Shown here piece after piece: positions 3,994 to 63,900 of a stretch of DNA of 64,000 nucleotides. Position 1 is the stretch's first letter. Each line of letters begins with the position of its first letter. This DNA is from Candidatus Forterrea multitransposorum CG_2015-17_Forterrea_25_41 (GTDB taxonomy: Archaea; Iainarchaeota; Iainarchaeia; Iainarchaeales; CSSED10-239): the NCBI GenBank assembly GCA_009392915.1, contig CP045477.1, positions 192,001-256,000 of the forward strand, read 5' to 3'. The notes under the pieces are model-generated. The model ran no database searches. It saw only the letters and a list, made by a program, of their open reading frames with translations, and was not told where the DNA came from. The translations under genes and the position numbers were made by a program.

Positions 3994-4005
3994 ATTTTAA
4001 AACCT

Positions 4006-39550: not shown

Positions 39551-39852
39551 GATTAATTTCTTAATTTCTTTTTCTTTTTTTTATTTTTTTTTCTTAATTA
39601 AATACCTTTTTAAATAGTTAGGTGTATATTATATCTAAATAATATATTTATTTTTAAGGTTATTAAGATATAAAAAGATCTAATCTCTTTAATAACAAAT
39701 TTTTATATCTTTTTTAAAAAAATATATTACTTTCATGTAGTTGTTTAAAAACTACATAACTTGGTTTGATTTTCAAACCAAAAAAACTATTTCTTATGGG
39801 AAATTTAAACCGAAGCTCTTTTAATACTTTCATGACATTATCATGATATATT

Positions 39853-41362: not shown

Positions 41363-44300
41363 ATGGTTAAAGATAAAAATAATTTAGGCTCAAATGAAAA
41401 CAATGAAAATAAACAAAATATTTTTTCAAGATTTTATAATTATCTTGAAGATAAATATTCTTCTTTATCAAACTGGCTTACAGAAAAAGGAATACCATTA
41501 AATAATTTAAATAATTATTTAGAGGAAAAAGGACTTCCTGCTTTTGCAATAGTTGCATCTATTTTATTATTATTAATCTTTATAATTGTTTTCTTAATTA
41601 TCTTTTCTTTTTCCAGTCAATCAACATTAATTTTTTCTGTTAAAGATTATTCTGGACTTTCAATCAATGATGCTTTTTTAAAAATTACAAATAGTTCAGG
41701 TAAGGAAATCTTTTCAGGAACTGTAAATGATACTGATGTTAAAAAATTAAAATTAAAATTAGGAGAATTATATTCTTTTAAATCAACTAAAGATGGATAT
41801 CCTGATTTTTCAAAATCAATAACTATTACTGATAAAGATCAAAAAGTACAAATTACTTTTTCAGAATCAATTGAGTATGGTATATTAAGAATAAAATTAA
41901 TAGATAGAGATAATAAAGGAATAATTACTTCAGGAACTGCGATCGCAAGATATTCAATTAATAATGCTCCTGAGTCTACAGAAAACATTGTAAATATTGC
42001 AAATGAACATTTTATTACTTTAGAAGTTCCAATGAATAAAGATATTGAACTTTTAGTTAGTGCAGATGGTTATGAAGATTTTAAAGAAACAAATTTTAGA
42101 ATAACTTTAGAAAATCAAGAAAAAGTAATTGAAATGGATATTTCTTCTTTATCTTTTGAAGGTAAAAGTCAAGTTACTTTTGTTGTTTTAGATACAGAAC
42201 AAAATCCAATTGATGGTGCTTTAGTAAGCATATATAATCTTGGAGATGAATTATTAGATTCAAAAAATACAATTGATGGAAGAGCTTTATCTTTTATTGA
42301 TAGTGGTTCTACAATATCTTATAAAGTTGAAAAAGAAGGTTATAGAACATTTGTAAGTGATCCTGAAGTTTCTTTTAGAATTACAAAATCTGAAATAACT
42401 TATAATGTTACTTTAGAAGAGGGTGGAAATTTTTTAGATGTGTTTGTAAAATCTGGTTCTAATTTTTTAGCTCTTGGAGATGTTGCAATTACTGTTTATG
42501 ATTTAAATAATAATATTATTAATTCTGGAAATACAGATGATTTAGGAAATTTAAAATTAACTGGTCTTTCTGATAAAGCACCAATTGTTGTAACTGCTTG
42601 TAAAGAAGATTTCCTTTGTGAAAATTTAACAGTAGATCTTTTAGAAAAAAGTTCAGTTGAGTTTACTTTAGAAAGAATAGATGTAACAAATAGTGCTATT
42701 CTGTCTGTTTTTGTTGTTGATGAAAAAAATTTACCGATCTCAAAAGCTTTTATAAAAATCTATCAATTACTTGAAGATGATAAAGAAGTTCCATACAACA
42801 CATCTCTTCAAACTGATCTTACAGGTTCTCTTTCAATACCTCTAAGAGTTGGAGATTCTTTTATAGTTTATTCATTAGTTGGAGAAGTTCAATATTTTGA
42901 AGAAATTACAATTGATGCTTTAAGAGAAAATAAAATAATTTTTGTAATGGATAATGCTTCTAAAATAATTAAATTAGATCTTTATGATGAAAATGGTTTT
43001 AAACTTACTTCAGGTTCTTTACTTGTAAAAACAAAAGATGGAACTGTTCTTTTTGATGGTAATTTATCTGAAACTGATCAAATAAGTTTTATTTCAGAAG
43101 GCTATAAAGATTTATATGCTGAATACACAGATGTTAATGGTAATAAATCTTCAATTAATTTTAATGCTGATGAATCTGAGTCAGATGGATATATAAGACT
43201 TGATTTTAATAAAGAAGTTAATTTAACAGATTATCCTGTAATTGAGTTTTCAGGAATTGTAGATTCTAAAGGAGTTAAATCAAATTTTGTAACAATAGGT
43301 AAAGAATATTATTTAATTTTTGATGTTTTATTCCCAGAAAATACTTATAAAGGACAAGTACATATTAGAGCTGGTGATGATACTCAAGTTGATGTTGAAG
43401 AAATGAGTTATGGTATAACTGGTTTTTCTGCAATGGATATTTATGATTTTAAATATGGTACAACATATAATAGTTCTCCTCTTCCAGGTTTAATGAATAT
43501 TGATCTTTTAAATGAAGGTTCTTCTCAAGTTTTAAATAAATGGCTTGAACTTAAATGGAATAGTGATCTTCCTTTAGGTAATAAACAAATCAAAGTAAAA
43601 ATAAATGTTATAGATGATTCTTATTCAAAATTAACTTTTAAATATAGAACTTTATTTGAAGAAAATAAATTATACTATAGAGATCCAGTTGACTCTTTAT
43701 TAAACCAAAGTTATTCTTCATCTCAAAAAGGTGCTTTATATGCAGATACAAAAGAAGTAAATATTGATGTTTATAATGTTCCTTTAGATTGTGAAGGTTC
43801 TCAATGTTTGTCATATACTTTTATTGATTCAAAAGGAAATGAATTTTCAAAAAATGATTTCTATGCTGTAAGAGATGAAACTTATTTTTTAAAAGTTAGT
43901 CTTTATTCTTTAGATAATAAACAATTAGATCTTTTAGCAGAAACTTCAAAAAGTTTCCCTTTAATTTCATTTGGTTCTTTTTCAGATAATCTTTATCAAA
44001 ATGAAATAATAAATGATAATTCTTTATTTGAAATTTCAAGAGATGGTTTTTTACTTTCTGAAAATTCTTTAAAAAATATTTATCTTTCATTTATCTCAAA
44101 AGATATTGGTGCTGCATATATTGATCTTAAAGCAACAGATGTTATTTTAGGAAATGAAATTTTAAACAATAGATTAAGTTTTAATGTTTATGATAAAAAA
44201 GAAATGAATGTTTTAGTTTCTCCAAGTAATTATGTTGATTATGGATCAAATTTTACTGTTGATGTTTTAGATTCAGTTTCTCTTGAACCTATTACAGATG

Positions 44301-47300
44301 CTTTTATTTCTTTTTATGATGTTAGAGATACTTTTATTTCTTCTTTAAAACCAAGTAATTCAAATGGAAGGAATGGAAAATATACTATTACAAATAATTT
44401 TAATACTTCAACTGTTAAAATGGTAGTTGAAAGATATGGTTATCTTCCTTATGAAACTGAAATTTATATTATTGATAATACTTTATTAAATGCAATTCCT
44501 TCAGAAATAATTTTTAATTTAGGTCTTGACCAAACAGCATCAACTTCAAATTTTAGTTTAGAAAACTTAGGTAATTATCAAGCAACAAATGTAAGGTTTG
44601 GAGAACCTATTTGGATTGAAGGTAGTGCTGGTATTTATCTTGAAGGAAGAGGTAATCCAATAATTAATAAAAACTCAACTCAAAATTATCAATTGTTACT
44701 TACAACAGAAAATGATGTTGAACTTAAAACAGCATATGCACATCTTCCAGTATATGCATCTGTAGGTCCTAGAGAAGTTACAAAAATATTAAATGTTAGA
44801 ATAAATAAAGGTTTAATGTTAAATGAATGTGTTGAAATTACTCCTTCTGAAGTTTCTTCTTTTGTTGGACTAAATGTTTCTTCAAATTATGCAGATCCTT
44901 TTAATACTCCTTTTGCAGATTATGATTATACTTCAAATACTTCAAATAATCCTATGCTTGCACCTTCTCAAAGTTATTCTAATTATGAAGAATATTTAAA
45001 TTCAAGTGGATATAACATTACTGATTCAACAGATAATGGTTATACTTACACAGATTCTAAAAATTATACTTATCATGCAACTTCTCCTGCTCTTAATTCT
45101 CAAATTACTGAAAACACAACTTATTTTACAATTAAAAATAATTGTTCTCAAGCTATAACTTTTAATCCTCAAGCAGTTTTAACTTCTTCATCATCAAATA
45201 ATAATTTAGAAGTTTCTCTTGCAAACATAACTGTTCTTCCAGGAGAAGAAAAAGTTTATGATGTTATTTTAAAAAATTCATCTGAACTTAAAAGAAAAAC
45301 AACATATACCTATAATGTTTTATGGCATAATAATTATTATTCAATAGCTCCTTCAGTTTTAAATGTTGATCTTTTAGATTTAAGTAGAGCTTTATGGGTT
45401 ATGCCACAACAAATAAATATTCCAATCTCTCAAGTACATCCTCAACAAGCTGCTGAAAATTATACTAGATTTTTTATTAAAAATATAGGTGCTGTTCCAA
45501 TAACTGATATACAAATAAGTCAGTATCCAAAAATGGTGTCTTCTAATATTAAAATAACTGAATATCCAAGACAAGTATCTGTTTTAGAACCAGGAAAAAC
45601 AATTCCTGTTGATTTAAAATTTTCAGTAAATATTAATAAATCTACATTAGATAATGCCTTTATACAAGTAACTGGTAAAGCTGTTGGTATTAGTGAACCA
45701 ATTACTTCAACAACACAATTAGTGTTTTCAATTTCTTCTCCAAATTGCTTAAAAGTAAGTAATAAAAATATTAATTTTGATTTAGAAGTTGGGGAAACAA
45801 GAGCAAGAAATATTACAATTACAAATCAATGTTCTGAACCTGTTACAATAGTTGGAATTGATAAAAAACAACAAGGATATTATCAAGCATATGGGGATAA
45901 TTCTTTTAGAATAACTCCTGCTTCTGGTAATCCAATAATTCCTGTTAACATGTCAAATTCTTATAGAATAGAGTTTACTGCAAATTCTTTAGGTGGTTCT
46001 CCAAAAACACCAATGATACTTCAAGGTAGATTAATGAATTCAGGTAATCCTGTAACTTCAGAAGAGGTTTTAGTTTCAATAACTATAGATGATATAATGG
46101 TTGGAGAAGAAGCTGAAAGAAATATTTCTATTTTATCTTCTCTTCCTTCTTGTGAAGATCCACAAAATATTAATTCATATAATAGACCATTAATTTCAAT
46201 TAAAGATTGTTCTGAAACTTCAGGATATTGTGATGGAGAATCTTCAGCTGAATTAATTTTAAAAAAAGTAAATGAACTTCAAAATGAAATTAAACAATTT
46301 TCTGCACAAACACAATCAAAAGTAATTGATACTGGTTGTACTCTTCAAGATGCATATAGTGGTTTTTGTAAAATATCTGAACTTGGTGGAGGAATTGATC
46401 CTGTTGAGTTTTCTTTCTTTATGCAAAATGATAATGTTACACCTGATTTAATTAAATCTATTTTAACAAAATCAAATTATTCTTTTAAAAATTATTTTGT
46501 TGAAACAAATATTTTTAATAAAGAAATTAAAACTATAAATCAATATTCTTCTTATGGGGTATATGCTGGTGGAAATAAAATATTTGTATCTCCTCACCTA
46601 TCAGGTTGTGGAAAATATACAGTAGAGATTGATGGTTATGTTGCTGCAAGTCCAGATTATATTTATCCTGAAAGAGCATATTATTATATTAATGTTGTAG
46701 AAAAAGATACTAACACTATTCATTGTGAGAAAAATATTGTAAATTATTTAAATTATCTTCCATGGGATCTTTCTTTTAATAAAAACCAAAGAGCAGGAAC
46801 TTGGCTTACTTTATTTACTGGTGATGAAAATTTATCAAAAGCTTTAATTAAAAGTGTGGGTAAGTTTAAGTCAGATGAAATTGATTTAAGATATGTTTAT
46901 AATAAAGATGTTTTATCTACAAGAAATAGTACTTTAAATGTTTCAACTGGAGAGATTTCTGAAAATAAAGAAGCTCTTGCAAAAATTTCTTTTAATGATA
47001 CTTCTTTAAGAAAAAGCTCTTCTCCAGAACAAATAGATATTACTTTAAATTCTCTTTATAATTCTCCTGAAGGTAAAACTTCTGAGTATGCTGTTAAAGA
47101 TTTTTCAAAAGTAATTTCTTCAATGATTTCAGATAATGATTATTCTGCAAAAGTTTGTATTTCTGAAGATAAAACATATATGCTTGTTTTAGATGTTATT
47201 TCAGCAGGAGATTTAACTTTTGTTGATAAAGAAGTAAGTCTTCCTTTAAAGGATGGAGCTTCATGTTCTTTATTAAAAGTTAAATCATCAGTTCCTGAAA

Positions 47301-49378
47301 CTTTAAAGATTACTTCTGATTCTTTAGAGTTTGCAAATATTGGTTTTAAGAAAAATAAAGATGATACTCTTCAAGAGTCATTAGATATTAGTGTTATTGC
47401 AAATAAAGATTCTAACTTTTATATGTGTGTAACTCCAAATTCAGAGACTGCTATCTCAAGTCTTGTTGATAAAAAAATAACTGTAACAGCAACAAGTATT
47501 TATTCTGCAAGTGGTAGTATTGGAAATAGAAGCACAACTTCAGAAGTAGCTTTCTCTTCATGTGCAATCACACCTGAAGATTATCTTTTAGGTATTTATT
47601 CAAATATTTTAACTGAAAATAATAAAGCTGAAGATGATAGAATCTTACCTCAAAATTATACAGCTATTGTAGATTGGGATAAACAATATAATCCTGAAGA
47701 AAAAGAAAAATTATGTTCAACTTTACAAAAGATTGTAAATAGTAAAAAGTATAATGGAGAACTTTTCTTTGATTATGAAGTTTTAGGTTGTGAGATTGAA
47801 GATTCTTCACAAGAAAGAGATTCAAGAATAAGTAAAGGATTACATAATGCTGGACAATATTTCTTTTCTTGTTCAGGAGCTTGTGGACTTTGTTATGGTC
47901 TTTCAGGACTTATAATGCCTACACAATTTGTAGGTGCAATTGTTGATTGTTTAGGTTTCTCTTGTTTATTACCTTCATTAAATATATTTGCATCAAATCT
48001 ATCTAATGGAGAAGGTGGAATATCTTGGCTTTTAGATGAATTTTTTGGATTATTATTAAATGATGATGTTAGTTTCTTTTCAAATATTACAAGTGAGATT
48101 GAAACATGGGTAAGTGGTGTTTTAGGTGTTGGAGGAGCTGCAACAAGTGGAGCTTTAAAAGCTAATGCTGCTTCTGCTGCTGTACCTTTAGATCAAGTTA
48201 CTCAAGACTTAGTTTCACAATCTAGTTATGATCCTACAACACAACAAATATTAGATGATTTAGCAAATCCATCAACAACACCTGCTCCTGTAAATCCATC
48301 AACAACTTCTGGTGTAATTAATGGTTCTACTGAATTAAAAAATTTAAATAGTCAATTAAATAATTTAAATAGATATTTAAGTGGTAATGACAATATTAAA
48401 TTACAAACATTTTCAAACCCACAAGAAGCAGGTAGATTTAGTGATATCCTTAGAAAAATGAATCAAACATCTGGATCTAACTTTGATAAATTGAGATCTT
48501 TATCTACTCAAGAGTTTGATGATTTTGTAAATATTCTTGAAAAACAAAATTTTACAGGTAAAAATAGTCATTTATTCAAAAAAGACTTACTTATTAAAAG
48601 ATTAAAAGATGCTAAAGTAAATGATTTCAAATCAGTTTCAGCTGCAACTTCTTCAAGTGCAGCAGCTACATCTAGTAGTGCAGCTTCAGTTGCTGATGAT
48701 TTCTATGATTACCCTAAAGCAGATTATGATCAAGCAATTAAAAATTTTGATAATGATATTAAAATGCTTGATGATTCAATAAGTAATCTTGAAAATCAAA
48801 AAGCAGCAATTGAAACTAATGCAAAAAGATCATCTGCAAATCCTAAAAAAGCACTTCGTTATAAATCAAAAGTTGATGCTCAAATAAAAGCAATAGATAG
48901 TCAACTTGATGAACTTAAAAAAAGTAAAGATGCTCTTTCAAGTGTTAAATCTAAATTTGCTTCAGCTAAAAATGTAAATGGTACTTATAAAGTTCCAACT
49001 TCTGCAATTGATGATTTATCAAATAATATTCCAAAACAAGCAAAACTTAGCAAATTATCTAAATTTGCAAAAATTAAAGGTGTTGCAAAAAGCTTTGGAA
49101 GAGGCCTTCTTTGTGGTGCTACAGGAAATGCTGCAGGAATATATTCTTTAAAAGAAGAAGGTAAAACAGGACTTAATAAATCAATAGAGTTTTTAAGTAA
49201 AAATGATTTTGAGAAAAATATATTCTATGTTTCAGAAGTTGATATGTTATCTCCAGAAAATGATCAAGAATACGAAACAAGATATACAATTAATATAAAA
49301 CCTTATATCTCTCAAGATCAAAGTATTATTTCTTCAATTCCTACAAAAAGAATTGATTCTTGTACTATAGAAGAATAA
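41363..49378 (+). CDS. Giant surface protein A (2671 aa): N-terminal cytoplasmic motif + TM anchor, CarboxypepD_reg/PEGA-like beta-sandwich array, Cys-rich hydrophobic hairpin and coiled-coil C-terminal region
   Basis: An uninterrupted 8016-nt ORF. N-terminus: FSRFYNYLEDKYSSLSNWLTEKGIPLNNLNNYLEEKGLPAFAIVASILLLLIFIIVFLIIF. At least 6 repeats end in ..K(D/E)GY..F.. (KDGYPDFSKSITI, ADGYEDFKETNFRI, KEGYRTFVSDPEV, RYGYLPYETEIYI). Later IKNNCSQAITF and TNQCSEPVTIVGI sandwich starts. C-terminal FFSCSGACGLCYGLSGLIM...FVGAIVDCLGFSCLLPSL, followed by heptad-like segments. Confidence 0.9.
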   Translation: MVKDKNNLGSNENNENKQNIFSRFYNYLEDKYSSLSNWLTEKGIPLNNLNNYLEEKGLPAFAIVASILLLLIFIIVFLIIFSFSSQSTLIFSVKDYSGLSINDAFLKITNSSGKEIFSGTVNDTDVKKLKLKLGELYSFKSTKDGYPDFSKSITITDKDQKVQITFSESIEYGILRIKLIDRDNKGIITSGTAIARYSINNAPESTENIVNIANEHFITLEVPMNKDIELLVSADGYEDFKETNFRITLENQEKVIEMDISSLSFEGKSQVTFVVLDTEQNPIDGALVSIYNLGDELLDSKNTIDGRALSFIDSGSTISYKVEKEGYRTFVSDPEVSFRITKSEITYNVTLEEGGNFLDVFVKSGSNFLALGDVAITVYDLNNNIINSGNTDDLGNLKLTGLSDKAPIVVTACKEDFLCENLTVDLLEKSSVEFTLERIDVTNSAILSVFVVDEKNLPISKAFIKIYQLLEDDKEVPYNTSLQTDLTGSLSIPLRVGDSFIVYSLVGEVQYFEEITIDALRENKIIFVMDNASKIIKLDLYDENGFKLTSGSLLVKTKDGTVLFDGNLSETDQISFISEGYKDLYAEYTDVNGNKSSINFNADESESDGYIRLDFNKEVNLTDYPVIEFSGIVDSKGVKSNFVTIGKEYYLIFDVLFPENTYKGQVHIRAGDDTQVDVEEMSYGITGFSAMDIYDFKYGTTYNSSPLPGLMNIDLLNEGSSQVLNKWLELKWNSDLPLGNKQIKVKINVIDDSYSKLTFKYRTLFEENKLYYRDPVDSLLNQSYSSSQKGALYADTKEVNIDVYNVPLDCEGSQCLSYTFIDSKGNEFSKNDFYAVRDETYFLKVSLYSLDNKQLDLLAETSKSFPLISFGSFSDNLYQNEIINDNSLFEISRDGFLLSENSLKNIYLSFISKDIGAAYIDLKATDVILGNEILNNRLSFNVYDKKEMNVLVSPSNYVDYGSNFTVDVLDSVSLEPITDAFISFYDVRDTFISSLKPSNSNGRNGKYTITNNFNTSTVKMVVERYGYLPYETEIYIIDNTLLNAIPSEIIFNLGLDQTASTSNFSLENLGNYQATNVRFGEPIWIEGSAGIYLEGRGNPIINKNSTQNYQLLLTTENDVELKTAYAHLPVYASVGPREVTKILNVRINKGLMLNECVEITPSEVSSFVGLNVSSNYADPFNTPFADYDYTSNTSNNPMLAPSQSYSNYEEYLNSSGYNITDSTDNGYTYTDSKNYTYHATSPALNSQITENTTYFTIKNNCSQAITFNPQAVLTSSSSNNNLEVSLANITVLPGEEKVYDVILKNSSELKRKTTYTYNVLWHNNYYSIAPSVLNVDLLDLSRALWVMPQQINIPISQVHPQQAAENYTRFFIKNIGAVPITDIQISQYPKMVSSNIKITEYPRQVSVLEPGKTIPVDLKFSVNINKSTLDNAFIQVTGKAVGISEPITSTTQLVFSISSPNCLKVSNKNINFDLEVGETRARNITITNQCSEPVTIVGIDKKQQGYYQAYGDNSFRITPASGNPIIPVNMSNSYRIEFTANSLGGSPKTPMILQGRLMNSGNPVTSEEVLVSITIDDIMVGEEAERNISILSSLPSCEDPQNINSYNRPLISIKDCSETSGYCDGESSAELILKKVNELQNEIKQFSAQTQSKVIDTGCTLQDAYSGFCKISELGGGIDPVEFSFFMQNDNVTPDLIKSILTKSNYSFKNYFVETNIFNKEIKTINQYSSYGVYAGGNKIFVSPHLSGCGKYTVEIDGYVAASPDYIYPERAYYYINVVEKDTNTIHCEKNIVNYLNYLPWDLSFNKNQRAGTWLTLFTGDENLSKALIKSVGKFKSDEIDLRYVYNKDVLSTRNSTLNVSTGEISENKEALAKISFNDTSLRKSSSPEQIDITLNSLYNSPEGKTSEYAVKDFSKVISSMISDNDYSAKVCISEDKTYMLVLDVISAGDLTFVDKEVSLPLKDGASCSLLKVKSSVPETLKITSDSLEFANIGFKKNKDDTLQESLDISVIANKDSNFYMCVTPNSETAISSLVDKKITVTATSIYSASGSIGNRSTTSEVAFSSCAITPEDYLLGIYSNILTENNKAEDDRILPQNYTAIVDWDKQYNPEEKEKLCSTLQKIVNSKKYNGELFFDYEVLGCEIEDSSQERDSRISKGLHNAGQYFFSCSGACGLCYGLSGLIMPTQFVGAIVDCLGFSCLLPSLNIFASNLSNGEGGISWLLDEFFGLLLNDDVSFFSNITSEIETWVSGVLGVGGAATSGALKANAASAAVPLDQVTQDLVSQSSYDPTTQQILDDLANPSTTPAPVNPSTTSGVINGSTELKNLNSQLNNLNRYLSGNDNIKLQTFSNPQEAGRFSDILRKMNQTSGSNFDKLRSLSTQEFDDFVNILEKQNFTGKNSHLFKKDLLIKRLKDAKVNDFKSVSAATSSSAAATSSSAASVADDFYDYPKADYDQAIKNFDNDIKMLDDSISNLENQKAAIETNAKRSSANPKKALRYKSKVDAQIKAIDSQLDELKKSKDALSSVKSKFASAKNVNGTYKVPTSAIDDLSNNIPKQAKLSKLSKFAKIKGVAKSFGRGLLCGATGNAAGIYSLKEEGKTGLNKSIEFLSKNDFEKNIFYVSEVDMLSPENDQEYETRYTINIKPYISQDQSIISSIPTKRIDSCTIEE

Positions 49379-49487
49379 TTCTTTTCTTTTTTTATTTTTT
49401 TAGTAAAAAGAAATATATAAAAATATAAACATCTTATTTATATTAGTTAATATAATATATTAAAGATATAATTGGTGTTATCTAATC

Positions 49488-51167
49488 ATGTTAAGAAATA
49501 AAAAAGGATTTAATTTATTTACTGCTTTAATCTCATTGATGCTTTTATCAATAACTCTAGTTTTTATTTTTAATATGGTTCAAACTGAAGAAAATTATTT
49601 AGAATTAATAAATAATCAATCTCAAGCTTCTGACCTCTTAACAATTGCAGATATTTCAAGAGCTGATGCTTTTAATAATTTTGTTGTTTCTTTTAGAGAA
49701 CAATGGATGTCTTTTAGAAGTGATCCTCGTTCTGAAATCATACTTAAAAGAAAAGATATTATGCTTGATTGGGATGGTTTTGTAGATTATTTTGCAGATT
49801 ATATTTTCTTTGATAATAGTTTTGAAAATTATTTTGCAGATAATATGGTTAGATCTTTAAATTATACAAATCCACCAACAGGTTATGCAATAAATGTTCC
49901 TAATTATTCTCGTGATGATTTATCTAGTATTATTAAAACAGCTTTTCTTGAAGCTGGAGATGATAAAATAAAAGTTGTAAGTTGTGAAAGAGAAGATGAG
50001 GTTTGTTTAGGTACACTTTATTTTACAATTGATACTAGAAAACTTTCTGCACAAGAATATGAAAAACTTCCAATGATAACTGTTAAAAGAAATGTTGATG
50101 ATGAAGTTATTCAAAGACCAGTTTTTGCAAAAAGAGCATACAGGATATATATTCCCTGGAGAGGTTTTCAAGCTTTAAGGACTGTTAGAAATTTTGCACT
50201 TGATGCTGATCTTGAAAAAGGAGAAACAACAGCTCAAATTATTGAATATTCAAAAGATTCAAGAGGTTTTTTAAACCCCTATATTCATTATACTCTCAAT
50301 AGTGCAAAACTTGGTGTTTGTGATATTGATAGTTGTGCTCTAAGAAAAGATTTATTTAAAACTGTTGAGTTTAATGGGTTTACTGGAGATGCATGTTCTA
50401 ATCCGCCTGGAGTTAGTAATGTTTCTGACAATGGAGGAATTACTGGATCTTTTACTGGAGAAGTTTCTCTTTCTAATAATCATAGTTACAATATTCAAGA
50501 TATAGATGGAACTGTAAAACCTATATATAATGATTTAGTTAAAACAACTATAGAAAACAATTTAGAATATAGAACTGATATAATACATGCAGGAAATAAT
50601 TTGCCATCAATCTCTTCTTCTTCAATTTTAGATGATGAATGTCAAATGTCTTTAACAACTGGAAATTTTTCAATATGTGATATACGTGTAAGACTTCCTT
50701 CTCCAAAAGTTACAAAAGAAGTTATTTCTGTAGGAACTGTTTCAGAATCTTTAAGTAGTTTATCTCAAGTTTCATTCAATCCTTCTGGTAGTTTTAATAA
50801 AGCTTCAAACTTAAGTCTCTCTATTGATGATGATTTAAATATTAATGTTTTTGATCAAGAAAGTACTATTCCTAATGAAACTGATAATCAATATCTATCA
50901 TGTACAACAATTGACTATATTGATTTATTATTTAAATTTGAAGAACAAGATGAAAAGTATATTTTTTCTCAAGATTCTAAAAATATTTATATTTTAATTC
51001 AAGATAGATTTTCAGATTATACTTTCTTTAATTCATTTGGAAGCGTTCCTAACTTTAGTGGAGGATATTTTCAAAAAAGAGAACTTCCTTCATTTACAGG
51101 AGGACAAGGTTGGACTTGTAAAAGTTATGAAGCAAATGAAGATGATGCAGCATGTGTTGCAGGTTAA
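49488..51167 (+). CDS. Large pilin-like protein (class III signal peptide), 559 aa
   Basis: N-terminus MLRNKKG/FNLFTALISLMLLSITLVFIFNMV. The rest is polar with scattered Cys residues. It is embedded between giant genes A and C. The SD GGTG is at 49474..49477. Confidence 0.75.
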   Translation: MLRNKKGFNLFTALISLMLLSITLVFIFNMVQTEENYLELINNQSQASDLLTIADISRADAFNNFVVSFREQWMSFRSDPRSEIILKRKDIMLDWDGFVDYFADYIFFDNSFENYFADNMVRSLNYTNPPTGYAINVPNYSRDDLSSIIKTAFLEAGDDKIKVVSCEREDEVCLGTLYFTIDTRKLSAQEYEKLPMITVKRNVDDEVIQRPVFAKRAYRIYIPWRGFQALRTVRNFALDADLEKGETTAQIIEYSKDSRGFLNPYIHYTLNSAKLGVCDIDSCALRKDLFKTVEFNGFTGDACSNPPGVSNVSDNGGITGSFTGEVSLSNNHSYNIQDIDGTVKPIYNDLVKTTIENNLEYRTDIIHAGNNLPSISSSSILDDECQMSLTTGNFSICDIRVRLPSPKVTKEVISVGTVSESLSSLSQVSFNPSGSFNKASNLSLSIDDDLNINVFDQESTIPNETDNQYLSCTTIDYIDLLFKFEEQDEKYIFSQDSKNIYILIQDRFSDYTFFNSFGSVPNFSGGYFQKRELPSFTGGQGWTCKSYEANEDDAACVAG

Positions 51168-51297
51168 ATTCACTTTTTAATGTTAATAAAAAGGTATTTA
51201 AATGTATAAGCACTATAATTATATAACAAATAACATAGTTTTTAAAAGATTATGTTATAAAAATATAATATATTATAATATATACGAGAGATGATTT

Positions 51298-54200
51298 ATG
51301 GGTCTTAGATCTTTTTACTTTAAACAAGAAGAAAAATATTTTAATTTTCTAGACAGGATGGAGAAAAAAGGAATTAATCTATACAAAATAATAGATCCTT
51401 TAGAAAAGAATGGTATACCTACTTTTTTAGTATTTAATATATTTATTCTACTTTTAATTTTATTTTTAGTTTATTTATTTGTTGGACAAACTCCATTAAC
51501 TGATGAAAACTACACTTTAACTTTTGTAAATTCTCAAGACCAGCCAATCTCAAATCAAGCAATTGAAATTCTTCTTAATAACAATAGAAAGATTTTAACA
51601 ACTAATGAATTTGGAATTTCAGAAATTACTGATGTTGAAATTAAATCTTATGATTTAGAAATAAGTAGTGAAAAGTATACTCTTGAAAATCCATTAACTT
51701 TAGATTTTAAAGAAAACACTTCTCATAAAATATTTTTAAAATCAAAAACTTCTGTTTTATCAAAAACTATATATTTTAAAACAAATAATGAATTATATAA
51801 TTCTCCATTAACAATTTCAAATATTTCTTGTTCAAATAATTCTCTTTATACAAAAAATAATCTTCAAACAAATGATGGTTCTTTAACTTTAGATGATATT
51901 CCTACAGATTGTGGATATTTAGAAGTTGCTATTGAATCTTCAACAATTAATGCTGTTGGTTCTTTAGAAGTTTCAGAAGACTCTCCTTCTGGAGATATTG
52001 ATTTAAGTTTTGAAGGTGTTGAAACTGGAAGTGCAAAAATAATTATTCTTGATAAAGATTTAAAAGTGCCTATTCAAAACATAAGTATTTCTATTCTTAA
52101 TAATCAAAGTCAAATTGTAACTTCTTCAATAACAAATGCAAATGGTATAGCATCTTTTGAAGAAATAAATGTTGGAACATATAATCTTTTAATCTATGAT
52201 GAAGAAGAAAGATACAAGCCAGTAACTGAAAATGAAAGTTTAGAACTTGTAGTATATGATTCTGTTTTAGAAGAAAAAGAAGTTCTTTTAGAAAAAGCAT
52301 TCATTGGTAAATTAAATTATAAAATTATTGATACTCAAAGTAAAGAAGCTATTGAAAATGTAGCTGTAACAATATACAAAGGAAATGATATTTTAAAAAC
52401 AATTAATTCAAATAAAGAAGGCGATGTTTCTTTTGGTGTTGAAGAAAATATTTCTTATAAAGTTTTATTTAATCATCCTAATTATATAATAAGAACTGAA
52501 AATAATCAAAGAATAAGTGAATCTATTAAACAAATTGCCTTAACTCCAATAACAAATGAAAATTTAAGAAGTTTAGTTATTACTGTTGTTGATGATTTTG
52601 CAAAACCTGTTGATTTTGCAACCATAAGATTATGGGATGATACTGAAGATATTATTCTTAGAACAATAACAGCTGATATTTATGGTAAAGCTGTTTTTAC
52701 AAATTTAGATTTAGGTAAAGAATATAGACTTGATGCAACTAAAGATCAATTTACTTCAAATCCTACAAATCCTTTTAGAATCTCAGAACAAGAAATAACT
52801 GAAGAAACTATAAAGATGAGTATAGGTGAAGGAACTTTTAATATTAATTTAGTTTCTGAGTATGGAGAGTTCTATCAAGGAAATGTATATGTTTATGATG
52901 CAACAAATGATACTTTAATGCAAGATAAAACCACAACAACAAACCAAGATGGTTTTACAATAATAAAGATTAGAGCTGATAAACAAATTTATTTTGTTAT
53001 TGATAATTTAGATTCTAAATTTATAACTCCAAAGTATTCAACAAATGCAAATGAAATAAATACTTTAAATTTTACAATTCCAGGAACTGTTGGGCAAACA
53101 TCTGGTATTGAATTTTTAGGTTTTTATAATGCTGAAGGAGAAAAAATAAATTCAGTGGCTGCAGGTATGCAAGTTACTGCTAAATATTTATTAAATGTTA
53201 CAAAAGAATATTCTAAAGCAGTTGCACATATAAGAACTGGAGAAGTTCCAAGTCCTTTATGTTCTTCAAACACATATAATGTTTTAGAAGATTTAATTTT
53301 TATAAAAGATGTACGTTATGCAAAATCTGATAAGATCGGTTCATTAACTTTTACTCCATGTAATGGAGAAGGTATTGATTTTTCAAATAAAACTTTAAGA
53401 AATGCAAAATGGTTTAATTTAACTTTAAATAATCCAATGCAAGGAAGTTATTTAATTGAAGCAGATGTTGTTGTTTTAGATACAGCTTTTGCAAATCAAG
53501 CTTTAAACTATAGAGCAGAGTTTTATCAAGGTTCAAGTATTATAAGATCACCTGTTGATTCTTCTTATAGTTCTTCAACAAGTAAACAAAATTTATATGC
53601 TCAAGCAAAACAAGTTCAATTATTTTTAGGAACTCAAAATCAATGTACTTCACTTATGTGTTATGCATTTATTATGACAAATACACAAAATAATTTATCT
53701 AGAAATATAATTGATAGTTATAAAGCTAAATTAAATAATGATTATAGACTTTCATTTAGTTTAAATGTTTTAGATGGAAAAATTGCACCAAACTCAATGC
53801 TTGTAATCTCTTCAGGTAGTTCTGTTGATTTAGATGGTTATTCTATTACTTCAGGAACTGGTTCTCTTTTAGTTGGAGAGGATTATGATGGAATTGATTT
53901 AGGTTCTTTAGTTTCAAATGATTTAATAACTGGAGAGCTTGCTTTTAAAGTAATAGATGATGTTTCTGATGTTTTAGACTTTTCAATAGTTTCTAATGGA
54001 GAAGTTGTATTCTCTAAAAAAATATATCTTGAAATTGATCCTGCAAAAGAAATGTTTGTAGAGTTTGTTCCAAGAAAAATTGTTCCTTTTGTTTCAAATG
54101 ATTTACTTGTTGTTGTAACTGATGATTCTAATAATTTTATTTCAAATGCAATTGTTGAACTTTCAATTAATGATAGAAGTTTAACTGTAGGTTCAACTAA

Positions 54201-61200: not shown

Positions 61201-63900
61201 GATTCTAAAACAAAAATACCTGTTGAAAATAGAACAATAACAATTAAAGATAAATTTAAAGATACTATTAAAGGACCAATTTCAGTATCTGATTCAGTTG
61301 ATGAAATTGAAATAGGTAATATTCCTGCTCAAGGACCTGGAGATACAATCTATGTTTATATAACAGCTCCTGAGTATGAAACTGTTGTTGAAGAATTAAA
61401 AGCAACTGATAAATTATATAATATTATTCCAAGAAATTTAGCATATTCATTAAATATATTTGATGAAAAACAAAAAACTGAAAACTTTACAATTAATAAT
61501 TTATCTCCAATTGATTTAACTATTGATGAAATGGTTGTAAAAGGAAATGGTCTTGAAGTTGTTGATCTTCACAGAATAAATAATACTTTACTTAATAGTG
61601 TTGGTGTTATTATAAAAGGATTTGATTCAGTTTCAGATCTGCCAGATAACACAGACGCTTCAAAAGAGATTCCATTAACTATTAGTTTAAATCCAAGAGC
61701 TGAAACAATTAGAGAAGTTGTAGATTTATCTTCAACACTTCATATTGTTCTTTCAAATGGAGAAAATCAATGGAAGAGTGAGATTCCAATTAAAATAAAT
61801 ATTGGCTTTGATGGTATGATTGATAATTCTAATTGTTTAACTTTATCTCAAGATCAATGGAATGCTGTTGCTTTAAATAAAGCTGTTGATACAACATTTA
61901 TGGTTTCAAATAAATGTTCTGTAAATGGAACAAATATGCCTCTTTCAAATGGTCTTGAAGCAAGAGTATTATTTGAATCTAATCCTCAAGGTAAATTTAT
62001 TATAAGTCTTGATAATAGATCAATTGAACTTACTCATGGTAACTATAGAAGATTACTTGATACTTTTGATAGAGATAGATCACTTCCAGTAATTTTAAAA
62101 TATGAACCTGCTGGAAGAATGAAAGGAACTGTTAAAGGTACAATTGAGTTTAGATCTGTAAATAACACTGGAAGTGGAGAACAAGAATTAGTTTCATCAA
62201 TTGCATTTGAAATTGATGTTACAAATTTAAAAGATTGTGTTGTGTTTTCAAAGAGTTCTTTAAATGTTGGACAAGTTGATGACGAATTCACAATTGAAAA
62301 TGTTGCTTGTCCTGCAGACATGACTTACAGACTTTCATGTGACAATTGTCAAGGTTTAGTTGTTGAACCAAGAAATAATATTGATGTTCCTGCAAGTGGA
62401 AGTAGTGAAAATATTGTTGTAAGAAACATGGGAGCTACACCTGGTGCTTATGTTTTAAATGTATTTTCAAGTATGAAAGAATTTAGAGGTTCTGAAGAAC
62501 TTATAAAAAGAATAAAAGTATATGTAAGACCAACAGATTATTGTGTTGATCTTGAAAGATATGAGTTTGATCTTTATAGATCTGAATATTCTGAAAGTAC
62601 TGGTCTTGAACTTAATGCAACTTCATATGATACAACAAATTTAATTAATCTTTGTTATGGTCAAGAAGTTGAAGGTACTTTTAGTGTTAAAGAAGATGCT
62701 AAATGGAAGATGGCTTTAACTTCATTTTTAAGAGAAGGTTTGTATACTGGTGGTATTTCTGCTATCTTGCAAGGAAAGTTATTTGCATCAGCTGAAGATA
62801 AGGCAAATAAATTACTTGAAAGTGATGCTATAAAGAATAGCACTGATGAAAATGTAAAATCAGCTGCTGCTGCATTAGCTGCTGCTGTTGCTACTGGTAA
62901 TAAGAAAGATATTAAAGAGAAGACAACTGCTCTTGAGAATGCTGTGAATGATTCTGTTAATCCAACTTCTTCAGAAGCTACACCTGGGGAAACTTCTACT
63001 GGAAATCAAACTTCTTTGATTGATAAATCTAACCAATTAGTTACTGATGTTGAAAAATATTTAGAAGATTACAAGGTTTCTGGAAAAAATATTTATCAAG
63101 AAGTTGGTGACACAAATATAAAAAAATTAATCAATGATTTAAAAGATGCAATAAAAACTAATAAAATTGAAAAAATAGAACCTGCTTATAATGAGCTAAA
63201 ATATGTTTTTGAAGAATTTAAAAATACAAATTCTCCTGTTACTACTCCATCTGCTGGAAGTACTCCACCCGCTCAAACTACTTCCCCCGCTCAAACTTCT
63301 GATACTGATAGTTTAACTGTAAATGATGATGTTGATAATACTTGGAAAAATAGTGTTAATTTAGATATATATAGAGAGTTTGTTTTAGATAATCCTAATA
63401 AACTTGATTTTGAATCTAAATCCTATAAAGCAGAAGATTATTCTAATTGGGATACTTTCAGAGAAAAATACGATAAAAGTGTTATTACACTTAATAAAAA
63501 AATAGAAGATGAATTATTAGTGTCTGCAACAAGTCAAAATGATTTTTCTGAAAAAATAAGAACTGCAAAAGATGAATGGAAAAAAAATGTTAGAATTTTA
63601 ATTGAAGATTTAAAAGCAAAGGAGGAGACATTAACTCCTAATTTAGATGTTCAACAACAAAGACTTCAAATTGCAAGTCAAGCACAAACAGGTGCTAGTT
63701 GTAGTAAAGACGAATTAATCCCTGGAACACAAGAAAATTTATTTAATATTATTGAACCTAATGATAATGGATTTGTATATGTTTGTACAGGAAATGGTCA
63801 TTATAGAGCTTGTGATTTAAATACAAATAAATGGACTCCAATAGCAACTAATTACCCAATTTATGATCATGCAGTAGATACATGTATTGAAATAAATTAA
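58297..63900 (+). CDS. Giant surface protein D (1867 aa), paralog of A and C
   Basis: An uninterrupted 5604-nt ORF. N-terminus: MGLKKLYYNLEDKYYSFVERTGLYKVTDKIDKVMPSFILFILLIVILISGLVFLL. It has a beta-sandwich array (AEGYLITRKLVE, APEYETVVEEL) and VSNKCSVNGTNMPL and ENVACPADMTYRLSCDNC modules. The C-terminal region is Ala/Ser/Thr/Pro-rich and coiled-coil-like. Confidence 0.9.
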   Translation: MGLKKLYYNLEDKYYSFVERTGLYKVTDKIDKVMPSFILFILLIVILISGLVFLLLPSSQVKDGVDIQFEVIDAESGALLEDVTLMLTTSKDISSITTSSEGLTDYIKIPKNTSYQIDIVEDSYENFNDIFSTKESSETITIALEPSGVEPLTVSYSFDVVDSKTTLIVNSTGAISFKCMNGSLAPNPVRVLNGNVSVEASPECNLAIDSISFNGYLSKDNIPINAMTGTISLEPTEINFQDDTYKVVINVKNSSNEALSNIKVTFTNDYGIIDSKTTSSNGNVTFEDLDSGEYIVNFSDQRATPIYSTLSRTYYISSDITKSETLSSDVSGYIFVRIIGENSGVLEGAEVNLKTSENNTIETKLSDVDGEVIFTVSEIKDYNVVVDAEGYLITRKLVEAKEVMPTNPIVIPLPLITPATLASLKVQVTTWEGKPFKFAKVVLYDAETGFLTDYKPVLTNYDGNATINITSGKYIAKAIKGSVTGESSEFEFNVKYPELSGTVTIPMGISEGVLNVSVVDNDGNPVPYAIIDLYDRYSYYNFTPAVPLKKTTTDSQGNIEMVVDADIEYYVVATDLDDVYGKTQSRFVYVGADSQESLEVTLYPRNSSTTKPRMVFNGIYKDDLKVEDNLKAGEDYKIRYNLLVPQNRTGDDVFEEIGLMLRTGSTSMIENDSLFIKYLDVPYLDSIQKYTQFNLNAPHENEGYYDEDSLTEGNFKWAKATLKEGPINYNGSFGFYNAYEIEAIISVKDTAVFGEELKIFSLGYGLNEDDEYETYNSYLGPNEEIEYYDVYDQITFGVGNELFCSDEFCFSSTIVDVSEDLRYDVTNNFAAMPNKDYKYSFTLINNSLETKYLSSRFILENIDEGLDFKNIKIYKPDGEVYTQTNTNENEFDIPITSLVSKQKVTGEIIFMPKLKGTRELSIKFISDQKIKFINQLFIDVLSDKTFEVEIEPSIIPSAKSFSLVINAVDSKTKIPVENRTITIKDKFKDTIKGPISVSDSVDEIEIGNIPAQGPGDTIYVYITAPEYETVVEELKATDKLYNIIPRNLAYSLNIFDEKQKTENFTINNLSPIDLTIDEMVVKGNGLEVVDLHRINNTLLNSVGVIIKGFDSVSDLPDNTDASKEIPLTISLNPRAETIREVVDLSSTLHIVLSNGENQWKSEIPIKINIGFDGMIDNSNCLTLSQDQWNAVALNKAVDTTFMVSNKCSVNGTNMPLSNGLEARVLFESNPQGKFIISLDNRSIELTHGNYRRLLDTFDRDRSLPVILKYEPAGRMKGTVKGTIEFRSVNNTGSGEQELVSSIAFEIDVTNLKDCVVFSKSSLNVGQVDDEFTIENVACPADMTYRLSCDNCQGLVVEPRNNIDVPASGSSENIVVRNMGATPGAYVLNVFSSMKEFRGSEELIKRIKVYVRPTDYCVDLERYEFDLYRSEYSESTGLELNATSYDTTNLINLCYGQEVEGTFSVKEDAKWKMALTSFLREGLYTGGISAILQGKLFASAEDKANKLLESDAIKNSTDENVKSAAAALAAAVATGNKKDIKEKTTALENAVNDSVNPTSSEATPGETSTGNQTSLIDKSNQLVTDVEKYLEDYKVSGKNIYQEVGDTNIKKLINDLKDAIKTNKIEKIEPAYNELKYVFEEFKNTNSPVTTPSAGSTPPAQTTSPAQTSDTDSLTVNDDVDNTWKNSVNLDIYREFVLDNPNKLDFESKSYKAEDYSNWDTFREKYDKSVITLNKKIEDELLVSATSQNDFSEKIRTAKDEWKKNVRILIEDLKAKEETLTPNLDVQQQRLQIASQAQTGASCSKDELIPGTQENLFNIIEPNDNGFVYVCTGNGHYRACDLNTNKWTPIATNYPIYDHAVDTCIEIN

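Follow-up and report, generated by a model that had tools for sequence, protein, structure and literature searches.

A conserved Cys-studded helix pair in the strain-variable tail of a giant archaeal surface protein

Gene A and its neighbours

The window, the whole 64,000-nucleotide stretch of DNA that was analysed, comes from an Iainarchaeota-like DPANN archaeon. It carries a cluster in which a giant gene, A, is followed by a pilin-like gene, B, and by two further giants, C and D. This order is kept in 9 loci. Gene B is found downstream of A in 10 related loci, directly in 9 of them and after two extra genes in L010. Its N-terminus weakly matches the ComGF pilin model (E 0.0085, far under the family cut-off).

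41363..49378, + strand: gene A, giant surface protein of 2,671 aa (ORF and translation)
49488..51167, + strand: gene B, 559 aa, class III (type IV pilin-like) N-terminus KKG/FNLFTALISLMLL (translation)
62674..63897, + strand: tail of D, D residues about 1460-1867, helical and low-complexity, C-terminal end with 4 Cys

Protein A consists of an N-terminal cytoplasmic motif, a signal-anchor TM helix (residues about 61-83), an ectodomain and a tail. The ectodomain, of roughly 2,000 aa, contains many β-sandwich domains in which Cys pairs are invariant, and gives a weak match to the bMG3 Pfam family. Its last Ig-like domain (1927-2065) was modelled with a pLDDT of about 90, and the model resembles β-sandwich folds of the macroglobulin (MG) and PapD-like types. 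Among 1.84 billion representative proteins, 14 relatives of A were found, in addition to 17 loci. The 17 orthologs measure 2,362-3,182 aa; those of full length align end to end with almost every Cys invariant. A contains 28 Cys, nearly all of them invariant, which form closely spaced pairs along the ectodomain, a pattern expected of extracytoplasmic disulfides.

The original prediction treated A, C and D as three paralogs whose roles are set apart by their tails, that of D being comparable to that of A and C having none. We found that C and D align with a further paralog, F, over about 1,300 aa and that A stands outside this group: no paralogy of A with C or D was detectable over the ectodomain, and A has only a roughly 45-aa N-terminal motif and the anchor in common with C, D and F. 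The anchor is the sole hydrophobic segment of C, in line with the original remark that C lacks such a tail. The idea that the tails differentiate the giants was right in spirit, as C, D and F have a common stalk and differing distal parts, but the A-D resemblance did not hold. BLAST detected no similarity between the tails of D and A (best E 0.084, low-complexity text). The D tail shows neither a hydrophobic segment (Kyte-Doolittle (KD) maximum 0.90) nor a Cys cluster, its heptad score is not above that of shuffles, and it is 98-100% conserved between D alleles, with no strain polymorphism. On these comparisons, the two tails are not homologous. In F, a Gly-rich two-helix segment, more hydrophobic than the hairpin of A, is located between stalk and head (Hessa-scale sums -0.8 and +2.0, borderline to TM-grade).

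The helix pair and the rest of the tail

The tail of A is located where it had been placed, at residues 2164-2671 (window positions 47852-49378). Starting with the segment that precedes it, its features are as follows.

47645..47827, + strand: pre-hairpin segment, residues 2095-2155, A-x-V-x-W-D-x-x-Y-N ... E-x-x-C2118 ... C2143
47852..47995, + strand: Cys-studded, mildly hydrophobic helix-loop-helix (the hairpin), residues 2164-2211, Y-F-x-x-C2170-x3-C2174-x2-C2177 ... D-C2196-x4-C2201-x-x-P
47996..48187, + strand: amphipathic and Gly/Ala-rich helices, residues 2212-2275, including ISWLLDEFFGLL and GVLGVGGAATSGALKANAASAA
48188..48328, + strand: disordered Pro/Thr/Ser/Asn-rich linker, residues 2276-2322, pLDDT <50 in both models
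48329..48610, + strand: small helical domain, residues 2323-2416, pLDDT 70-84, exchanged independently between strains
48611..48715, + strand: Ser/Ala-rich low-complexity linker, residues 2417-2451, AATSSSAAATSSSAAS, seen in sequence, pLDDT <50
48716..48961, + strand: heptad-periodic helix-loop-helix, residues 2452-2533, the text originally called coiled-coil-like
49061..49159, + strand: predicted helix with G-x-x-C2584-G-x-x-G-N-x-x-G, residues 2567-2599
49160..49375, + strand: conserved C-terminal β-rich domain, residues 2600-2671, ending R-I-D-x-C2667

The tail is a module not described before, organised around a conserved, Cys-studded and mildly hydrophobic pair of helices. Seven Cys had been announced in the hydrophobic stretch; we counted five (2170, 2174, 2177, 2196 and 2201). 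This density is above chance, since only 21 of 5,000 shuffles of A reach 5 Cys in 32 residues. The family motif reads C-x3-C ... C-x3/4-C-G-[IL]-P. C2170, C2174, C2196 and C2201 are invariant in 17/17 orthologs, and so is the Pro after the hairpin Cys. C2177 is confined to the 12 clade-1 sequences and missing from the other 5 of the 17; it co-occurs with two C-terminal Cys, that of the C2584 motif and C2667, all of which are absent from clade 2. With four Cys invariant and a fifth kept in one clade, as a check of Cys conservation in homologs established, the element is real and under selection. Clade-1 tails carry 9 Cys, an odd number, and therefore at least one Cys is unexplained by pairing inside the tail. 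In the pre-hairpin segment, W2105, Y2109, E2115, C2118 and C2143 are likewise invariant in the 17 orthologs.

The hairpin had been described as two hydrophobic stretches of about 20 residues. They are the most hydrophobic part of A beyond the anchor, but measure about 13 and 25 residues and are marginal. Residues 2166-2211 form the only stretch of A beyond the N-terminal anchor with Kyte-Doolittle(19) >=1.5 (maximum 1.68; ectodomain maximum 1.27), and their Hessa-scale sum is +2.9. In all 17 hairpins this sum lies between +2.4 and +5.4, whereas the A-D anchors score -3.6 to -7.6; the corresponding KD values are 1.3-2.0 and 2.6-3.6. Clade-2 hairpins are less hydrophobic still (KD 1.3-1.45). Mean hydrophobicity is 0.47-0.50 with a hydrophobic moment of about 0.05, showing that the helices are uniformly apolar. 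Across orthologs the apolar runs mostly span 15-20 residues, and in most orthologs D or N occurs midway along helix 1, with K and D where helix 2 begins. In the window's strain, helix 1 contains 22 consecutive residues without a charged or amide side chain. This TM-like appearance arises because a deletion of roughly 10 residues removed the polar centre found in most orthologs. AlphaFold predicted helices at 2149-2178 and 2187-2211 with a low-confidence loop, at a moderate pLDDT (57-78) and from a shallow alignment of 12 sequences.

After the hairpin, helices are predicted at 2220-2231 (hydrophobic moment 0.43), 2240-2255 and 2260-2271, and a helix of the I-D-x-F type is kept in orthologs. The linker at 2276-2322 varies in length and sequence among them. 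No DNA tandem repeat was reported in the Ser/Ala-rich linker. The heptad-like text proved genuine: residues 2456-2493 and 2498-2531 score 0.70, the 95th percentile of shuffles being 0.54, and both models predict helices at 2452-2490 and 2497-2533 (AlphaFold pLDDT about 60-74). Most simply, this region would be a short antiparallel hairpin of ~2 x 35 residues. Clade-2 orthologs have several more heptad helical repeats. Every clade-1 sequence has the C2584 motif, as do three C-terminal fragments. In the C-terminal β domain, strands are predicted with pLDDT of about 61-84 in blocks covering 2610-2659, and 7 full-length orthologs all share F2616, Y2622 and Y2641. Searches of Pfam, NCBIfam, PHROG and PDB gave no match over the tail; a Foldseek search of the PDB with the tail-only model gave only matches with E > 0.4, and a profile search of the tail against PDB sequences gave no significant match.

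Exchange of a cassette between strains

47828..49150, + strand: strain-level polymorphic cassette, residues 2156-2596, a 32-42% identical protein version of which is present in the L006 allele

A and its L006 allele are 96.7% identical over residues 1-2089, 32-42% over 2156-2596 and 100% over 2597-2671. By blocks, identity is 88-100% (mostly 96-100%) to residue 2100, then 78, 32, 30, 27 and 34%, then 100%. In the hairpin segment, identity between strains goes down to 41.7%. The pre-hairpin segment is 95-98% identical between strain alleles and thus sits just outside the variable cassette. At the nucleotide level, A and L006 have no similarity over the cassette core, 48080-49093. The blastn flanks of this gap are 92.7% identical in a comparison of window positions 46500-51200, and 96.4% and 93.8% identical in the whole-locus comparison. 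Breakpoints are visible in the A/L006 alignment, and all Cys are kept. Alleles P0018 and P0019, about 97% identical to A elsewhere, drop to 29.9% over 2304-2427 and swap that part only. Among the three strain alleles, the C-terminal β domain is 100% identical in spite of the exchange of the 440 aa before it. Nothing of the kind was seen in the available alleles of C, D and B. The polymorphism of the A tail is proof of exchange, not of function.

Read from these mosaic alleles, the event is a cassette exchange by recombination involving at least two separable sub-cassettes. It points to an exposed tip that acts in recognition, and not to a second anchor in the membrane.

Location and possible role of the tail

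Two orthologs, P0006 and P0009, have a C-terminal NLPC_P60 domain that passes the Pfam cut-off (E 2e-11 and 2.4e-25). Since some orthologs end in such hydrolase domains, the tail of A is probably extracellular, and hydrolase domains located outside would require an even number of membrane passes, or none. NlpC/P60-fold enzymes can be intracellular too. The domains occur in orthologs and are absent from the window's protein. Clade-2 orthologs have added another, papain-like-looking Cys/His domain.

We consider with moderate confidence that the tail of A is the distal tip of a fibre for cell contact, polymorphic and probably stapled by disulfides, and not a second anchor. A would be a giant fibre-like surface protein held by its signal-anchor helix near the N-terminus, which itself would lie inside the cell and everything beyond the helix outside it. 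The hairpin would most likely be a cystine-stapled α-hairpin, each helix bearing a C-x3-C or C-x4-C pair, placed in the apolar core of the subdomain that opens the tail, the amphipathic helices packing round it. Beyond it would follow flexible linkers, the small helical domain, the antiparallel heptad hairpin and the strictly conserved C-terminal β domain. Recombination of the module from hairpin to last helix (2156-2596) between near-identical strains is how an exposed surface under diversifying selection would be expected to behave, whether it serves to recognise a partner cell or is itself the target of viral recognition. The source habitats are apparently largely anoxic engineered or subsurface sites, although this is explicit in one record only, an activated-sludge assembly. 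In apparently anoxic habitats, formation of the hairpin disulfides is not assured.

Colicin pore domains and diphtheria toxin TH8-TH9 contain hydrophobic helical hairpins, and disulfide-bounded internal fusion loops are also known. The hairpin of A may be a latent element of this kind, soluble in a helical bundle at the fibre tip and inserting into a target membrane on contact, where it would help to open a bridge or pore while the hydrolase domains of orthologs would breach the wall. Like those toxin hairpins, it is a marginally hydrophobic helix-loop-helix amid amphipathic helices of a secreted protein. It is distal to the anchor, uniformly apolar, and too weakly hydrophobic to stop translocation, as a secreted membrane-active element requires; the more hydrophobic segment at the stalk/head junction of F and the C-terminal NlpC/P60 domains are also consistent with this. 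We nevertheless hold such insertion to be unlikely: neither the Foldseek nor the PDB profile search matched a known pore-former or fusogen, clade-2 hairpins are even less hydrophobic, the helices of the family contain conserved charged residues, and two disulfide staples, set inside the helices unlike those of fusion loops, would hinder typical hairpin opening. We know of no demonstrated host for Iainarchaeota, which weakens this idea as well as that of a cell-contact tip. Insertion into the archaeon's own membrane, which together with insertion into a host membrane made up one of the two original proposals, would make the hairpin a re-entrant TM element; the ectodomain would become a loop held at its two ends, and the rest of the tail would be displayed by the cell surface. 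Two adjacent apolar helices with a short loop, the 22-residue run of the window's strain and the borderline F hairpin agree with this; an even pass number still leaves hydrolase domains outside, and the SPEARE giants of Nanohaloarchaeota have a TM domain after their Ig-like array (PMC10266531). It fared poorly: the insertion score is positive in 17/17 orthologs, the TM-like helix 1 stems from the deletion, polar residues interrupt most hairpins, invariant Cys pairs are unusual in lipid-embedded helices and the segment is hypervariable between strains. We therefore judge it quite improbable.

The other original proposal, an oligomerisation stalk in which the Ala/Ser-rich and heptad region zips copies of A together, or A with C or D, draws on the significant heptad signal, the further repeats of clade 2 and the co-encoding of several giants. 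With about 35 residues per helix and an 8-residue loop, an intramolecular antiparallel hairpin is simplest, and the location of this region inside the strain-variable cassette would be unusual for an obligate assembly interface; we regard a stalk as very unlikely. Even less can be said for a Zn site or Fe-S cluster, structural or redox-sensing, bound by C-x3-C-x2-C and C-x3/4-C. The triad does have radical-SAM motif spacing alongside the invariant Cys, and anoxic habitats would favour thiolate ligands over disulfides. The profile match to the Atx1 metallochaperone (E 0.29) is weak and not significant, no radical-SAM or ferredoxin fold or Pfam match was found, and 5/17 orthologs lack the third Cys of the triad. 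Hydrophobic helices with i/i+4 spacing suit helix-helix staples better than metal knuckles.

The presumed stapled tip has partial counterparts in known systems. Small Tim proteins carry twin-CX3C motifs. In plant α-hairpinins (C1-X3-C2-Xn-C3-X3-C4), C1-C4 and C2-C3 disulfides staple an antiparallel helix pair (PMC7191063). The A hairpin shares with both two CX3C-type pairs on consecutive helices joined by a loop. It differs from them in being embedded in a 2,671-aa protein, in its apolar and longer helices (21-33 residues between inner Cys), in the CX4C second pair of 8/17 sequences and in the fifth Cys of one clade. The likeness is a structural analogy, not a homology. In DPANN archaea, giant surface proteins made of Ig-like arrays are well established and have been linked to host interaction (PMC10266531), and SPEARE proteins are described as having a Sec signal at the N-terminus, a TM domain that follows the Ig array and a VirB4/TraG-like ATPase in the cytosol (PMC10266531, PMC6642349). 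Like these proteins of Nanohaloarchaeota, A is very large, encoded in a small DPANN genome, mostly made of tandem Ig-like β-sandwich domains, membrane-tethered, presumed to act in cell contact and provided with a coiled-coil element near its C-terminus. It departs from them by its N-terminal signal anchor, the lack of an ATPase and the probably Cys-stapled hairpin tail exchanged between strains, and we detected no sequence similarity between A and SPEARE proteins.

The receptor-binding and C-terminal regions of CdiA and the tips of phage tail fibres are polymorphic tips of contact-dependent fibres. A resembles them in its long conserved stalk and in a distal module that closely related strains exchange by recombination, the breakpoints being sharp and the flanks conserved. 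In A the variable part lies within the protein and not at its C-terminus, and the organism is an archaeon. A toxin domain and a co-varying immunity gene are both lacking downstream, where B and the final 75 aa of A are conserved. Hydrophobic segments and coiled coils also occur together with a C-terminal wall hydrolase in phage tape-measure and tail-tip proteins. P0006 and P0009 follow the same order, with apolar helices, helical repeats and then NlpC/P60; the match of one ortholog to the minor tail protein family phrog_329 covers only its NlpC/P60 domain. A itself differs in having no hydrolase and in being a cellular gene in a conserved chromosomal cluster.

The tail of A and its conserved cysteines

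The sequence quoted in the original prediction was found at residues 2164-2671 of the giant protein A (2,671 aa), a tail encoded at window positions 47852-49378. It opens with an apolar, Cys-studded hairpin (residues 2164-2211), to which seven cysteines had been attributed. We count five (2170, 2174, 2177, 2196 and 2201); five cysteines within 32 residues were matched by 21 of 5,000 shuffles of A. Outside the N-terminal anchor, the hairpin is the sole segment of A with a 19-residue Kyte-Doolittle value of at least 1.5, the ectodomain maximum being 1.27. No antisense ORF of at least 80 aa was found under the tail region and no DNA tandem repeat beneath its Ser/Ala run.

AlphaFold prediction of A 1880-2671, as a monomer and from a shallow alignment of 12 rows, gave a mean pLDDT of 64.7. 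Single-sequence prediction of the tail was poor (pLDDT 48.5). The longer model comprises the following elements.

Predicted structural elements of the C-terminal part of A (residue numbers)
1927-2065: Ig-like domain, pLDDT ~90
2149-2178 and 2187-2211: helices of the hairpin, with a low-confidence loop between them, pLDDT 57-78
after the hairpin, up to 2271: short helices
2275-2322: disorder
2323-2416: small helical domain, pLDDT 70-84
2421-2445: disorder
2452-2490 and 2497-2533: helix-loop-helix
2567-2599: helix
2607-2663: β-rich end

When this model was compared with the PDB using Foldseek, only β-sandwich folds were returned, matching the Ig-like domain; the tail-only model gave no match with E < 0.4. 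The heptad-like text that had been noticed was recovered at residues 2456-2493 and 2498-2531, which score 0.70 as compared to a 95th-percentile shuffle value of 0.54, on a crude, home-made score that is neither MARCOIL nor DeepCoil. The tail of the giant D, which had been likened to that of A, shows no BLAST similarity to it, has a Kyte-Doolittle peak of 0.90 and carries neither a Cys cluster nor a significant heptad signal. As the two tails are not similar on any measure, their homology was dropped.

When 1.84 billion representative proteins were scanned in full with HMMER, using A 2101-2671 as the query, 14 relatives came out, several of them full-length (2,362-3,182 aa); pattern scans added one genome locus and 16 metagenome loci. 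The orthologs align end to end with A and almost every cysteine of A is invariant. Aligning the hairpin region of 17 sequences showed these residues to be invariant: W2105, Y2109, E2115, C2118, C2143, Y2166, C2170, C2174, C2196, C2201 and P2204. Four of the five hairpin cysteines are thus conserved in all 17 sequences, and the objection that their positions might vary therefore falls. Twelve sequences (clade 1) have C2177 and five (clade 2) lack it. The same pattern of presence and absence is followed by C2584, within a G-x-x-C-G-x-x-G-N motif, and by C2667, near the C-terminus. Their co-occurrence goes back to a single phylogenetic split and is a hint of, rather than strong evidence for, a physical link. 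The signature of the module reads W-D-x-x-Y ... C-x3-C ... C-x3/4-C-G-I-P ... G-x-x-C-G-x-x-G-N ... D-x-C.

Pfam, NCBIfam and PHROGs gave no match to the tail; searching PDB sequences with its profile gave only a non-significant one, to Atx1. Giant surface proteins rich in Ig-like domains are established in DPANN archaea, and those of the SPEARE-like type have a C-terminal transmembrane domain followed by a cytosolic VirB4/TraG-like ATPase (PMC10266531). A is likewise giant, membrane-tethered, built with β-sandwich domains and encoded in a DPANN-type genome. It differs from SPEARE-like proteins (PMC10266531) in topology and domain content; no VirB4/TraG-like ATPase or other Pfam domain was detected in its tail. 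The kind of protein is already known. What appears not to have been described, in the literature that we searched, is the tail module with its Cys signature and polymorphic cassette, and the conserved gene cluster that includes a pilin-like member.

The gene cluster and the position of the tail

The window has a GC content of about 25%, and genes for NurA, an XPD-type helicase, a RuBisCO large-subunit homolog, PEP synthase/PPDK, an intein-bearing P-loop protein and LemA/M48 neighbour the giant genes, a gene set that is archaeal and DPANN-type. L007, a related locus, has one gene here that the window lacks: a 257-aa gene (3394-4167) placed between those for the M48 peptidase and NurA. Protein A itself, unchanged, is found in many samples, on contigs of up to 0.66-0.84 Mb. 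Among species-representative genomes, a close relative was found only in a 'Candidatus ainarchaeum sp.' MAG (86% in the best aligned segment), which we read as Iainarchaeota. The giant genes occupy the 3' third of the window and continue beyond its end on the parent contig, the positions of E and F being given in locus L004.

Genes of the cluster
A, window 41363-49378 (+): giant protein, 2,671 aa
B, window 49488-51167: 559 aa, class III (type IV pilin-like) N-terminus, KKG followed by FNLFTALISLMLL
C: giant protein, 2,323 aa
D: giant protein, 1,867 aa
E, then F, L004 15642-25604, beyond window end 64000: E, 964 aa, with a signal peptide; F, giant protein, 2,466 aa as far as covered

The order A, pilin-like B (KGF[NT]LFTAL...), C, D is kept in nine loci whose identity to A ranges from 27 to 96%. 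B lies 3' of A in ten related loci: it is the next gene in nine, and in L010 two extra genes intervene. L005 has B broken up as two ORFs, of 154 and 364 aa. Neither a pilus-assembly ATPase nor a prepilin peptidase was found among the window ORFs scanned. The work defines a conserved cluster made of the giant A, the pilin-like B, the giants C, D and F and the secreted protein E.

A had been taken for a paralog of C and D. Over the ectodomain, A is not detectably a paralog of either; an alignment, of about 1,300-1,390 residues, is obtained only among C, D and F. What the four giants have in common is a cytoplasmic motif of ~45 residues directly before the anchor helix, Y..LEDKY..F...KGI.L.K..D.LEKKGIP.F, which is also kept in distant orthologs. 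It might serve all of them as a signal for export, assembly or docking.

Shared N-terminal motif
A: window 41417-41611
C: window 51298-51500
D: window 58297-58480
F: L004 18552-18720

Two further large proteins of the window, encoded at 155-3463 (-) and 4006-6414 (-), contain Laminin_G_3 (concanavalin-like) domains, one of them also having a glycine-rich C-terminal domain; both are likely additional surface proteins. The window also encodes an 840-aa protein (20402-22924, -) in which a large intein, with splicing and LAGLIDADG domains, lies inside a P-loop protein with a weak Zot-like match.

The position of the tail with respect to the membrane was approached through its orthologs. In two of them (P0006 and P0009), the tail is extended by NLPC_P60 domains (E 2e-11 and 2.4e-25). 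In clade 2, the tail finishes with a conserved domain of ~200 aa, carried by L012, L015, L021, L022, P0009 and P0011, with the motifs C-A-x-F and H-V-(V/I)-L-Y-(V/I)-G. This domain has no Pfam match; to the eye, its Cys...His pattern resembles that of a papain- or CHAP-like hydrolase. Wall hydrolases of the NLPC_P60 sort normally act outside the cell, which makes it more likely that the chain crosses the membrane twice, or not at all, on its way from the N-terminal anchor to the tail.

The hairpin: membrane segment or staple

Hydrophobicity was compared between the hairpins and the N-terminal anchors, the figures being hydropathy values rather than the output of a dedicated topology predictor. 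On the insertion scale of Hessa 2005, the best 19-residue window of the hairpin sums to +2.4 to +5.4 in the 17 orthologs, as compared to -3.6 to -7.6 for the anchors of A to D. Kyte-Doolittle values are 1.3-2.0 for the hairpins versus 2.6-3.6 for the anchors. The apolar runs, mostly of 15-20 residues, have a high content of Gly, Ala, Ser, Thr and Cys. Most orthologs have a D or N in the middle of helix 1, a K and a D where helix 2 begins, and a D ahead of the third invariant cysteine. Two features expected of a transmembrane helical hairpin that acts as a second anchor are thus lacking: a pair of segments of at least ~19 residues hydrophobic enough for membrane integration, and helices free of conserved charged or strongly polar residues. 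The hairpin of the window's protein looks more transmembrane-like than that of the family because a deletion of ~10 residues has taken out the polar centre of helix 1. A better candidate for a transmembrane hairpin is the strongly apolar, Gly-rich two-helix segment of F (residues ~1517-1590, L004 ~23100-23321), which lies between a C/D-like stalk and an E-homologous head and is clearly more hydrophobic than the hairpin of A.

Hairpins of the α-hairpinin-like or twin-CX3C kind are held by two inter-helix disulfides, C1-C4 and C2-C3. The C-X3-C ... C-X3-C motif on consecutive helices that this class requires is found in the family of A, on a helix-loop-helix predicted in A with pLDDT 57-78. The first pair is CX3C in 17 of 17 sequences; the second is CX3C in nine and CX4C in eight. 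This is the Cys layout of cystine-stapled α-hairpins such as α-hairpinins (PMC7191063), with CX3C on helix 1 and CX3C or CX4C on helix 2. The distances from cysteine to turn, read by eye from the alignment, are not symmetric in all orthologs.

Several roles for this segment were weighed. Insertion of the hairpin in a target membrane fits its marginal hydrophobicity, its amphipathic neighbours, its distal position and the existence of hydrolase-bearing orthologs, but the tail has no homology to any known membrane-active domain; the hairpin may have this role in addition. Both hairpin helices are evenly and moderately apolar (mean hydrophobicity 0.47-0.50, moment ~0.05), and the helix that follows (2220-2231) is amphipathic, with a moment of 0.43. 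A re-entrant anchor in the cell's own membrane is less well supported. So is a metal site at the hairpin cysteines; a radical-SAM-like cluster there was rejected, as there is no matching fold and the third cysteine is not universal. An oligomerisation stalk, for which the heptads would speak, is also less well supported: by our own crude score, heptad periodicity is significant only over two helices of ~35 residues with a short loop between them. Should the hairpin be only a structural staple, the result would still be a clear annotation of a new domain family.

Cassette exchange between strains and a proposed reading of the tail

A was compared with its ortholog in the related locus L006, the evidence on alleles coming from assemblies rather than reads. 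Identity is 96.7% over residues 1-2089 and 100% over 2597-2671, and only 32-42% over 2156-2596 (the cassette). In nucleotide sequence, flank identity is 92.7% over window 46500-51200, or 96.4% and 93.8% in a whole-locus comparison; in neither comparison does window 48080-49093 have any detectable nucleotide similarity to the L006 locus, and it is the sole non-homologous block of that 13.8-kb locus. The flagged region thus corresponds almost exactly to a modular, recombining, strain-variable block with strictly conserved sequence on either side. A third allele is found within the 90% cluster of A. Its representatives, P0018 and P0019 (2,681 aa), match A throughout apart from the small helical domain (2304-2427). 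In that stretch, identity to A drops to 29.9% and they are somewhat nearer to the L006 version (43.2%). All cysteines are kept in every allele of A.

Milder variable patches between strain alleles, 81-89% identical as compared to 95-100% elsewhere, lie in A, C and D.

Milder variable patches
A 101-200: window 41663-41962
C 2001-2200: window 57298-57897
D 1-300: window 58297-59196

The available D alleles vary at 1-300 only, C varies mildly at 2001-2200 and B hardly at all. No silent copy of an alternative cassette was found either in the window or in L004 and L005, two loci that reach ~10 kb past the window end.

Two known sources of variability were considered. Polymorphic toxin/CDI systems have a variable C-terminal toxin domain and a co-varying immunity gene directly downstream. 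In A the variable block is internal, and both its last 75 aa and the gene B that follows are kept from allele to allele, with nucleotide identities of 92.7% over window 46500-51200 and 93.8% in the whole-locus comparison; this candidate was rejected. The tail matches no toxin family in Pfam or PHROGs. Targets of diversity-generating retroelements are of ~100-150 bp, with adenine-templated positions and no indels. Such an element was rejected also, the ~1.3 kb that differs, with indels, being too long for such a target; no reverse transcriptase was found among the window ORFs scanned.

On the most economical reading, A would be an N-terminally anchored, fibre-like surface protein whose distal tip is the tail. 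The tip would start with a cystine-stapled apolar helical hairpin, continue with linkers and small helical modules and finish with a conserved terminal β domain; it would evolve under diversifying selection, which is what one expects where a surface recognises a partner or is itself recognised. To our knowledge, the molecular basis of DPANN attachment to and feeding on other cells is largely unknown, and we know of no demonstrated host for Iainarchaeota. A bolder version, which we consider rather unlikely, would make the tail the business end of a contact fibre: the stapled hairpin would be exported in soluble form and insert in the envelope or membrane of a partner, the cassettes would set specificity, and in some lineages the hydrolases would open the partner's wall. 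The allelic units would then be 2156-2596, with 2304-2427 as a separate unit. If penetration did take place, this would be a new archaeal modular attachment and penetration device without homolog among known fusogens, toxins and secretion systems.

Returning to the distal-tip reading, A carries a discrete module of ~500 residues with its own signature, additions of wall hydrolases in some lineages and cassette exchange between co-occurring strains. At the population level, exchange of this kind marks out molecules that work at a recognition interface, be it with host, kin or virus, and this makes the tail a concrete target for experiments. The tail can also serve as a marker for following strain-level specificity in metagenomes.

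A secreted protein of 452 aa encoded 5' of the cluster (window 38192-39550) is strain-variable as well: window 38486-39565 has no nucleotide similarity to L007, a locus that is otherwise 95-97% identical.
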